Shown here piece by piece: positions 1,531 to 12,133 of a stretch of DNA of 12,401 bases. Numbering within the stretch: the first letter of the stretch is position 1; each line of letters begins with the position of its first letter. The notes below the pieces were generated by a model. It was not told the origin of the DNA, did no database searches, and saw only the letters and a list, made by a program, of their open reading frames with translations. The DNA comes from Promethearchaeota archaeon (lineage in GTDB: Archaea > Asgardarchaeota > Lokiarchaeia > Sigyniarchaeales > SOKP01). Location: the NCBI GenBank assembly GCA_008080735.1, contig SHMW01000103.1:1-12401 (forward strand). The letters run 5' to 3'. Position numbers and translations under genes: made by a program.

Positions 1531-1785
1531 TATAATCTAATTTAGAATGCATTTTAAAAACATAAATATTTTTCTGCTTTATATTTAATCTCTCAATGTT
1601 CTTTAAAAAAAATTCTTACTCGGGATTCAGACCATTTTAAATTACTTCTTTTCTTGAATTTAAATAATTGTTTAAATCTTTTTATGGAGTAATTTAACTA
1701 AAGTTAAAATGGTGTTAGAAAAAAGCTAGACTACATAAAAATGTAAAATGAACCTAAATTGGGTTCTATTTTAGAAAAATATAAT

Positions 1786-1798
1786 AAAGATTTATAAA
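1786..1798 (+). promoter_or_regulatory. Candidate archaeal BRE/TATA box for aIF1
   Basis: AAAGA followed by TTTATAAA (1791-1798), about 80 nt upstream of the proposed start. The region is very AT-rich and has other TATA-like words, so the assignment is weak. Confidence 0.3.
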
Positions 1799-1878
1799 AA
1801 ATGTTAATGTTATAATATAGTGTTAATGCAATTTTTATCGATAATATACAATTAACAAAAAAGTTGTGAAAATTTAAA

Positions 1879-2202
1879 ATTAGCGAAGATAGAGATATCT
1901 GTCCTGTTTGTTCGTTGCCGAAAGAGCTCTGTGTTTGTTCAGATTTATCGGCTGACGAGCAAGAAATCGTAATTTCCAATGATCGAAGAAAATGGGGAAA
2001 AGTGGTCACTCTCATCTCATTTAAAGGAAACACCGACGCTGATTTAGATAATATGCTCACAAAAGCCAAGAAAAAAGTGGGTGCAGGAGGGACTCTACGC
2101 GGAAAAAATGTGTTAGAATTACAAGGAGAACATAAATTTCGCATGAAGAAATTCCTAATAGACCATGGATACGATGAGGACAGGATCAGAATTAAAATGT
2201 AA
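1879..2202 (+). CDS. sui1: Archaeal translation initiation factor aIF1 (SUI1/eIF1/YciH family) with N-terminal Cys4 zinc-binding motif; probable ATT start, 107 aa
   Basis: SUI1 motifs DRRKWGKVVT, GAGGT and VLELQGEH. The frame of the 1915 ORF stays open upstream as ATT AGC GAA GAT AGA GAT ATC TGT CCT GTT TGT TCG TTG CCG (ISEDRDICPVCSLP), completing CPVCSLPKELCVC. In-frame TGA at 1867-1869. The family call is strong; the exact start is inferred. Confidence 0.9.
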   Translation: MSEDRDICPVCSLPKELCVCSDLSADEQEIVISNDRRKWGKVVTLISFKGNTDADLDNMLTKAKKKVGAGGTLRGKNVLELQGEHKFRMKKFLIDHGYDEDRIRIKM

Positions 2203-7429: not shown

Positions 7430-7966
7430 ATGTCAAAACCAAAAATCTCGATGAAGCTAGTGGTTATCGGTGATGGATCAGTTGGGAAAACAACTCTCTT
7501 ACACAGATATATCAACAGGGAATTTATAGACACTACTACCATGACTATAGGAGTAGATTTTTACGTAAAGGAAATTGAGATTGATGAAACTATTTGTCAG
7601 TTGAACCTCTGGGACATAAGTGGACAAGACCGTTTCTTTTTTATGGTTGATAAGTATATGCGAGGAGCAAGTGGGGCTCTTTTATTGTATGATATTACCA
7701 GTATGACGAGTTTTGTAAATTTGGATAAATGGGTAAAAATATTAAGAGAGAAGAACACCTCGAATTCGGAAATTCCCATTATTCTAATTGCCGCAAAATA
7801 TGATTTAGAAGAATATTCAATTGTTGGAGACCTCTACGCTAACAAAAAGCAAACTAAATTGGGTCTTATTGATTATATAAAAACCTCTTCTAAAACGGGC
7901 AAAAATGTGGATTTAGCCTTTGAATCTATTGCTAAATATATTTTGGAACAGAAAAAATCAGATTAA
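7430..7966 (+). CDS. Ras-superfamily (Rab-like) small GTPase, a eukaryotic signature protein of Asgard archaea
   Basis: G1 GDGSVGKT, G2/RabF1 TIGVDF, G3 LWDISGQDRF, YMRGASGALLLYDIT, G4 AAKYD, G5 TSSKTG. No C-terminal Cys prenylation motif. Confidence 0.95.
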   Translation: MSKPKISMKLVVIGDGSVGKTTLLHRYINREFIDTTTMTIGVDFYVKEIEIDETICQLNLWDISGQDRFFFMVDKYMRGASGALLLYDITSMTSFVNLDKWVKILREKNTSNSEIPIILIAAKYDLEEYSIVGDLYANKKQTKLGLIDYIKTSSKTGKNVDLAFESIAKYILEQKKSD

Positions 7967-11848: not shown

Positions 11849-12133
11849 ATGGCTGAAACGTTAGAAATTGTTGATTATATTCAAGGTACATTTAGCTTAC
11901 TATTTGTAATTATATCATTGATCATTGGCATTACGATTCTTCTGAAATTTTTTAATTATAAAAGGCGAATCTATATCCTAATGGGCTTATCTTGGATTGG
12001 ACTTGCGAGTCCTTGGTTTCCGGATTCAATAAGTTACATAATTATTTTATTTGGTGGTGCTAGACTGCCAATTGGGATTTATCTTATCTTATCCTCTCCC
12101 CAAGGGCAAAAATCTAGCCTTTTTTGTGCGTAG
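11849..12133 (+). pseudogene. 3'-truncated paralog of the 7TM membrane protein (about first 2.5 helices)
   Basis: MAETLEIVDYIQGTFSLLFVIISLIIGITILLKFF aligns with MAFQDLSDLELIRGIFSLLFVVITVIIGIRIILKYF. Similarity and hydrophobicity end at GIYLIL (about 12090). The tail SSPQGQKSSLFCA is simply antisense of the neighbouring gene. Confidence 0.75.
12079..12093. repeat. TTATC x3 tandem microrepeat at the junction of two truncated genes
   Basis: TTATC TTATC TTATC at 12079-12093, read directly from the sequence. Confidence 0.85.

Follow-up and report, generated by a model that had tools for sequence, protein, structure and literature searches.

The aIF1 gene and its upstream region

The window, by which we mean the whole 12,401-nt stretch of DNA that was analyzed, carries on its forward strand a gene for the archaeal translation initiation factor aIF1, a member of the SUI1 family. 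The features assigned at this locus are listed below with their coordinates, strand and supporting evidence.

1731-2144, reverse strand: antisense ORF of 137 codons beginning with ATG, without a family match and probably spurious
1787-1800, forward strand: putative archaeal promoter, a purine-rich BRE-like AAAG followed by TTTATAAAAA (read from the sequence)
1862-1869, forward strand: Shine-Dalgarno (SD)-like motif AGTTGTGA, which reads GGTTGTGA in most relatives
1866-1877, forward strand: out-of-frame mini-ORF GTG AAA ATT TAA, ending 1 nt before ATT, its GTG forming part of the conserved motif
1867-1869, forward strand: in-frame TGA, the upstream boundary of the aIF1 frame (sequence and family comparison)
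1879-1881, forward strand: ATT, the proposed aIF1 start codon (conservation, onset of codon periodicity, homologous ATG elsewhere)
1879-2202, forward strand: aIF1/SUI1 coding sequence, 107 codons and then TAA at 2200-2202 (profile matches, alignment with M. jannaschii aIF1)
1900-1938, forward strand: N-terminal zinc knuckle CPVC-x6-CVC (translation, alignment with PDB 4MO0)
1915-1917, forward strand: TTG within the zinc knuckle, start of the 95-aa ORF in the mechanical ORF list
1957-2172, forward strand: SUI1 domain, match to PF01253 (profile search)

The aIF1 frame scores 48 bits against PF01253 (cut-off 25.5) and 98.8 against the NCBIfam model NF002096 (cut-off 98). Its translation aligns over the full length, zinc knuckle included, with M. 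jannaschii aIF1 (PDB 4MO0, residues 3-101 against query residues 6-105, E 1e-19). The alignment begins at residue 3 of 4MO0, where EICPRCGLPKELCVC is paired with window residues DICPVCSLPKELCVC; since the N-terminus of 4MO0 aligns before TTG 1915, the coding sequence extends upstream of this codon. The zinc-knuckle cysteines (C2, C5, C12 and C14 in alignment numbering) are invariant among 13 diverse relatives. A single SUI1-domain match was found in the 4.1-Mb genome, a draft metagenome bin of 93% completeness and 7% contamination, and the gene at 1879-2202 is the organism's initiation factor rather than a spare paralogue. By homology, its product is assumed to bind the 30S subunit near the P site and to destabilize non-cognate initiation complexes, activities that passages of PMC6237735 and PMC4705826 describe for aIF1 of S. 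solfataricus and P. abyssi. Elsewhere on its forward strand the window encodes a Ras-family small GTPase of a kind typical of Asgard genomes (7430-7966; PF00071, 155 bits) and a tRNA-Arg(CCG) (11986-12077).

Read in the aIF1 frame, the in-frame TGA (1867-1869) is followed by AAA TTT AAA, ATT (1879-1881), AGC GAA GAT AGA GAT and ATC (1897-1899), and then by TGT 1900, CCT GTT, TGT 1909, TCG, TTG (1915-1917), CCG AAA GAG CTC, TGT 1930, GTT and TGT 1936. The original prediction gave this series of codons, and it agrees letter by letter with the window sequence. Two claims built on it also hold: no ATG, GTG or TTG occurs in frame at 1870-1899, that is, between the TGA stop and the first Cys, and TTG 1915 lies inside the zinc motif, so that a start there deletes two of the four Cys ligands.

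Conservation of the ATT codon within the family

To compare the start region among close relatives, we used 57 aIF1 loci from 55 genomes and 12 genera of the same family, two second copies included. The codon homologous to ATT 1879 is ATT in 50 loci, ATC in two, ATA in four and GTG in one. Conservation of ATT, ATC, ATA or CTG at a codon that is ATG in relatives had been proposed as the feature to look for; one of the first three is present in 56 of the 57 family loci, ATG occurs in none of them, and ATA and CTG are found in other Asgard families (see below).

In 48 of the 57 loci the frame has no canonical start (ATG, GTG or TTG) from the upstream stop up to the first Cys, and in 47 an in-frame TGA, TAA or TAG lies only one to three codons upstream. 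Recurrence of this arrangement in 48 loci is explained neither by chance nor by sequencing error. The first in-frame canonical start of the relatives is found 34-72 codons past the first Cys, and in two loci (L012 and L020) the whole aIF1 ORF is devoid of one; with canonical starts lying this deep or missing altogether, synthesis of a functional aIF1 from a canonical start is impossible. The position of the window TTG 1915 reads TTT, CTC or TTA in relatives, and thus it is not kept as a start. In-frame GTG codons are present in the nine remaining loci, eight of them within the SD-like motif and one (L005) at the start position itself.

An entropy profile of the 38 distinct family sequences places the onset of three-periodic variation exactly at ATT, the region upstream showing no periodicity. 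After ATT, the entropy of third codon positions is 0.9-2.0 bits and that of first and second positions 0-0.5, and yet the third base of the ATT codon is nearly invariant (T in 36 sequences, C in two and A in none).

Second aIF1 copies in some family genomes (L144 in G135, L145 in G085 and L017 in G023) carry a strong GAGGTGA motif. The GTG of this motif is in frame, four codons before ATT or ATA, which leaves the start of these copies ambiguous.

Shine-Dalgarno-like motif, putative promoter and search for RNA elements

The weak SD-like GTGA pointed out in the original prediction is present at 1866-1869 and leaves 9 nt to ATT. It is the core of the most conserved upstream block among the 38 distinct family sequences, GGTTGTGA, which occupies positions -17 to -10 from ATT. 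Confident starts in this genome show an excess of GGAGGTGAT-type motifs 4-10 nt ahead of them, and a GGTGA with a 9-nt spacer falls in the normal range; on these grounds we read the upstream block as a Shine-Dalgarno element. The window motif retains only the intact GTGA core, that is, an SD of 4 nt. Use of SD elements was deduced here from motif enrichment, as the bin has no 16S from which to take an anti-SD sequence. The more specific pattern GGT[TCA]GTGA is not enriched genome-wide (129 occurrences against ~200 expected). According to a review (PMC12993045), SD sequences are rare in Lokiarchaea; in agreement with this, a minority of genes in our genome carry one, and all near-cognate starts that we found do so.

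A aaAGaTTTTTAtAAG element similar to that of the putative promoter lies ~75-90 nt upstream of ATT in many relatives. From the promoter-like element at 1787-1800 we infer a leader of ~50 nt for the aIF1 transcript. A search for conserved RNA structure around the start found none (single-sequence z-scores from -1.9 to +1.5; nothing from alifold), and no RNA family was found by an Rfam search of the window. In a search for a special initiator tRNA, ARAGORN reported 12-26 tRNAs and no tRNA-Met, its calls here being broken by introns.

aIF1 start codons in other archaea

In other archaeal lineages, all 66 sampled aIF1 loci have ATG two to six codons before the first Cys. This outgroup includes Methanosarcina, Methanomicrobiales, Thermoplasmata, Thermoproteota, Bathyarchaeia, Korarchaeia, Jordarchaeia, Aenigmatarchaeota and Nanoarchaeia. 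Because most archaea use ATG on aIF1, a weak start is no general requirement for this factor. Closer to the window, the homologous codon is ATG, TTG or GTG in the sister families of the same order, one of which includes a single-contig 4.36-Mb genome.

Outside this family, near-cognate codons at the aIF1 start recur among Asgard archaea. ATA is found in genus g17 of family f2 (L024/L025) and in families f5 (L192), f12 (L149) and f18 (L158/L159), and CTG in family f7 (L157) and several genera of f10 (L177/L180/L181/L186). The ATA of f12 and f18 sits behind AGGAGG, and each of the ATA and CTG starts follows an SD (AGGAGG, AGGAG or AGGTG). In f10, the sisters of the CTG genera carry GTG here, preceded by AGGAG, and across these families the homologous codon of sister genera is ATG or GTG. 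In total, aIF1 is without a canonical start in about seven of the 28 sampled Asgard families, and ATA or CTG appears to have arisen on aIF1 independently in the families other than that of the window.

The conservation of ATT, the tight upstream stop, the SD spacing, the onset of codon periodicity and the ATG at the homologous codon of other archaea together strongly support an AUU start. Comparative evidence thus supports the AUU start put forward in the original prediction, and translation of aIF1 very probably begins at ATT 1879.

Annotation of aIF1 in databases

NCBI protein records of relatives begin with MSEDRDICPVC, MKDDDICPIC or MTEDEICPLC, that is, at ATT, which means that annotation has silently used the ATT start. 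These records are named YciH-like through the NF002096 model. The aIF1 calls of JGI, ENA and Logan are truncated to 84-100 residues. The view that gene callers hide the start is therefore correct for these three resources and for the TTG call in the window, but not for the NCBI records of relatives.

Apparent near-cognate starts in other genes

As controls, we inspected the starts of other genes of the translation apparatus. The genes for aIF1A, aIF2-alpha and aIF2-beta start at ATG in this genome, as does the uS4 gene in all 21 genomes sampled from the order; with ATG throughout, uS4 is usable as a control and not for co-variation with the aIF1 start.

The wider occurrence of near-cognate starts was assessed by a scan of stop-to-stop ORFs with 100 codons or more, in which 800 kb of two family members were compared with this genome (368 pairs) and identical residues lying before the first canonical start were counted. 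An initial set of flags obtained with a 2-codon tolerance (39 of 128 pairs) was discarded as an artefact of BLAST alignments entering short AT-rich leaders, and shadow ORFs or a Sec-TGA accounted for most flags of the identity-based scan. After these removals, aIF1 and an Arf-like GTPase were the only genes among the 368 pairs with conserved N-terminal residues and no canonical start in either genome. A more permissive comparison of starts, anchored on SD 5-mers, which has low sensitivity (27 of the 368 pairs were scorable), added two cases specific to this genome (G000), with canonical codons in the orthologues; three other SD-anchored candidates were dropped, because ATG or TTG follows within two codons. 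The three genes that join aIF1 are the following.

G000:C106:1021-2910, forward strand (locus L241/L245): Arf/Roc small-GTPase-domain protein of 630 aa with a conserved N-terminal (M)LRQVYIYK domain
G000:C118:246-752, forward strand (locus L297): E2 ubiquitin-conjugating enzyme (PF00179), ATT 6 nt after GGTGA
G000:C38:9546-9962, reverse strand (locus L296): Lrp/AsnC regulator, CTG 7 nt after GAGGT, ATG in the orthologue

Near-cognate-looking starts therefore occur in at least four of the 368 genes, or ~1%, a figure obtained for this genome at limited sensitivity. The Arf-like GTPase gene lacks a canonical start over 29 codons, and GGTGA precedes its ATT by 6 nt. The codon homologous to this ATT is near-cognate in 19 of 22 family genomes (ATT in 13, ATA in four, ATC and ACG in one each) and ATG in the other three, while the f2/f3 outgroups have ATG (six) or GTG (one). 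In the E2 enzyme orthologue of G232, the codon that aligns with the ATT is TTG, and an ATG lies two codons upstream.

In G004, the sole family genome with GTG in place of ATT on aIF1 (L005), the GTPase orthologue (L265) has ATG in place of ATT. In G017, the motif GTG of aIF1 (L015) is in frame and the GTPase (L254) has ATG. From these two cases, start-codon usage may co-vary at the lineage level. The genome also encodes a selenophosphate-synthetase-like protein with AIRS and AIRS_C domains (G000:C63:15064-16160, reverse strand, locus L298), the gene of which contains an in-frame TGA in the context HG-U-SCKLGP. This TGA is shared with a family member and is likely a selenocysteine codon.

Alternative explanations

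Several other readings of the aIF1 start were considered. That 1879-1881 contains a sequencing error, that the gene is a pseudogene or that TTG 1915 is the true start could be suspected from the draft nature and contamination of the metagenome bin and from the choice of TTG 1915 by ORF callers; however, ATT is present in 50 loci of independent assemblies, the aIF1 ORF is intact and conserved whereas TTG 1915 is not, and we regard the probability of such an artefact as close to negligible. Initiation at the second near-cognate codon, ATC 1897, would give M-CPVC. In agreement with such a start, the first Cys is always preceded by ATC, ATT or ATA, the NCBI record of one relative begins there (P0030, MCPICSFP), and Methanosarcina has ATG at this position plus another upstream. 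On the other hand, ATC 1897 is 27 nt away from the SD-like motif, and archaea with an upstream ATG have an internal Ile at the corresponding residue. In addition, the five codons from ATT to ATC vary mainly at third positions, keeping K/S-D/E-D/E-D/E, which shows that these codons are translated; a start at ATC 1897 is very improbable. Slightly less remote, but still improbable, is a start at the conserved GTG 1866 with translation of a mini-ORF of 4-6 codons, followed by reinitiation at AUU or a +1 shift into the aIF1 frame. The motif GTG is indeed nearly invariant, 13 nt before ATT in most loci, and in many loci the frame of the mini-ORF ends in a TAA or TAG that overlaps ATT or lies within 1 nt of it (e.g. 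TAT TAA A). The position of this end is nevertheless not conserved, being 1 nt before ATT in the window and L020, whereas in genus g5, which has ATC, the mini-ORF runs for 14 codons; given this variation among relatives, a reinitiation role, though possible, is unsupported. Moreover, the putative shift site has no slippery sequence, the motif GTG has no SD of its own and is in frame instead in L015, L017, L021 and L022, and the GTPase gene shares the layout of GGTGA, spacer and ATT with a GTG at -10, as expected if GTGA is the SD. Two related candidates were rejected: a programmed +1 frameshift of the prfB or antizyme type, because the mini-ORF end differs among loci, no codon is competent for re-pairing and g5 has no stop, and a start at TTG 1864 with readthrough of TGA 1867, because relatives have TCG or TAG for the TTG and genus g11 has TGA TAA. 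The aIF1 gene of S. solfataricus P2 is listed as interrupted and possibly expressed by -1 frameshifting (PMC8211752); a frameshift signal was looked for at the aIF1 start of the window and was not found.

The alternative with most weight, which we consider a real possibility although somewhat on the doubtful side, accepts AUU 1879 as the start and denies it any special regulation: the family would tolerate AUU, AUA, AUC and CUG behind an SD, perhaps at low output, and aIF1 would be one of dozens of such genes. The four near-cognate-looking genes of G000 speak for it, as do the Arf-like GTPase, the near-cognate start of which is about as conserved as that of aIF1, and the SD-like motif that precedes every near-cognate start found. 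Against it, the genes for uS4, aIF1A and aIF2-alpha/beta keep ATG, and the GTPase start is near-cognate in this family alone, whereas that of aIF1 is so in about seven of the 28 sampled Asgard families. At a per-gene rate of 1-2%, chance would produce seven of 28 families with a binomial probability of ~1e-6, a value to be read with the reservation that the families are related and that a single family supplied the rate. Reversion to ATG likewise separates the two genes (0 of 57 loci for aIF1 versus 3 of 22 for the GTPase). Finally, any discrimination of aIF1 against AUU would automatically bring feedback with it.

Proposed autoregulation of aIF1

Taking these points together, we consider an AUU start combined with negative feedback by aIF1 the best explanation of the locus, a judgement in which we have about even confidence. 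According to this proposal, the single aIF1 would be translated from AUU 1879, placed by the SD-like GTGA on a leadered mRNA, and AUU would presumably be decoded by the initiator Met-tRNA. The AUU has become fixed across this family of Promethearchaeia (Loki-type Asgard archaea). Since aIF1 is expected to destabilize near-cognate initiation complexes, an AUU start would couple its synthesis inversely to its activity: synthesis would drop at high aIF1 activity and climb at low activity. Such negative feedback would keep start-codon stringency at a set point, in the manner of bacterial infC and eukaryotic eIF1.

The bacterial infC gene, which encodes IF3, reportedly has an AUU start with translational autorepression, as found by Butler, Springer, Grunberg-Manago and co-workers. 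Both infC and the aIF1 gene described here encode a factor that rejects, or would reject, non-canonical starts, and appear themselves to begin with AUU behind an SD, kept over a wide clade; the logic of the negative feedback would be identical. However, IF3 and aIF1 are unrelated proteins, and the feedback is proven for infC and inferred for aIF1. Furthermore, AUU starts in E. coli are, to our knowledge, nearly confined to infC and pcnB, whereas at least ~1% of the genes tested here look near-cognate.

Eukaryotic eIF1, an orthologue of aIF1, has the SUI1 fold as well and occupies the corresponding site of the small subunit. The eIF1 mRNA has a weak initiation site, and high eIF1 lowers its own translation; this autoregulation through a poor AUG context was described by Ivanov et al. 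2010 and Martin-Marcos et al. 2011, as cited in a passage of PMC6237735. The means are different, as eukaryotes weaken the context of a scanned AUG, whereas in the window the codon itself is near-cognate and appears to be placed by an SD. The aIF1 proteins of M. jannaschii, P. abyssi and S. solfataricus (PDB 4MO0 and 5ZCY; PMC6237735) are of the same family and length and have the same zinc knuckle and basic loop, and differ from the aIF1 of the window in the start codon, which is ATG in the sampled loci of other archaeal lineages and very probably AUU here. In S. solfataricus, aIF1 causes 30S complexes to reject an mRNA with AUU (Hasenohrl 2009, in the summary given by PMC4705826).

The idea of feedback thus draws on the AUU-rejection biochemistry of Sulfolobus, on the parallels with infC and eIF1, and on the recurrent near-cognate aIF1 starts across Asgard families. 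At the same time, the other near-cognate-started genes suggest that AUU may be a habit of the whole lineage rather than a device private to aIF1. If AUU works for ~1% of genes, the aIF1 of this lineage may be a poor discriminator against it, and any feedback would then be weaker.

Implications for start-codon stringency in Asgard archaea

Self-controlling fidelity factors with weak starts are textbook cases in bacteria (IF3) and in eukaryotes (eIF1), and our literature search found no archaeal counterpart; specifically, a full-text search returned no paper on a near-cognate start of archaeal aIF1 or on aIF1 autoregulation. What appears to be new here is an infC-like layout on an eIF1 orthologue in the third domain. 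If the proposal is true, its occurrence on the eIF1 orthologue of Asgard archaea, the closest known relatives of eukaryotes, would link both known systems and would provide a testable handle on how archaeal start-codon stringency is set. Truncation of aIF1 and other near-cognate-started proteins by most gene callers, in turn, distorts the Asgard proteomes used in studies of eukaryogenesis.

It can further be speculated, as a tentative and rather unlikely extension, that the AUU of aIF1 acts as a stringency-stat, which ties the output of the gene to the efficiency of near-cognate initiation and thus keeps AUU, AUA and CUG starts behind an SD usable. Such a device would explain how the lineage affords near-cognate starts on ~1% or more of its genes. 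Given the repeated ATT, ATA and CTG on Asgard aIF1 and the poor eIF1 start in eukaryotes, self-control of e/aIF1 through a weak start would in that case be older than eukaryotes, and all three domains would have this principle in common.
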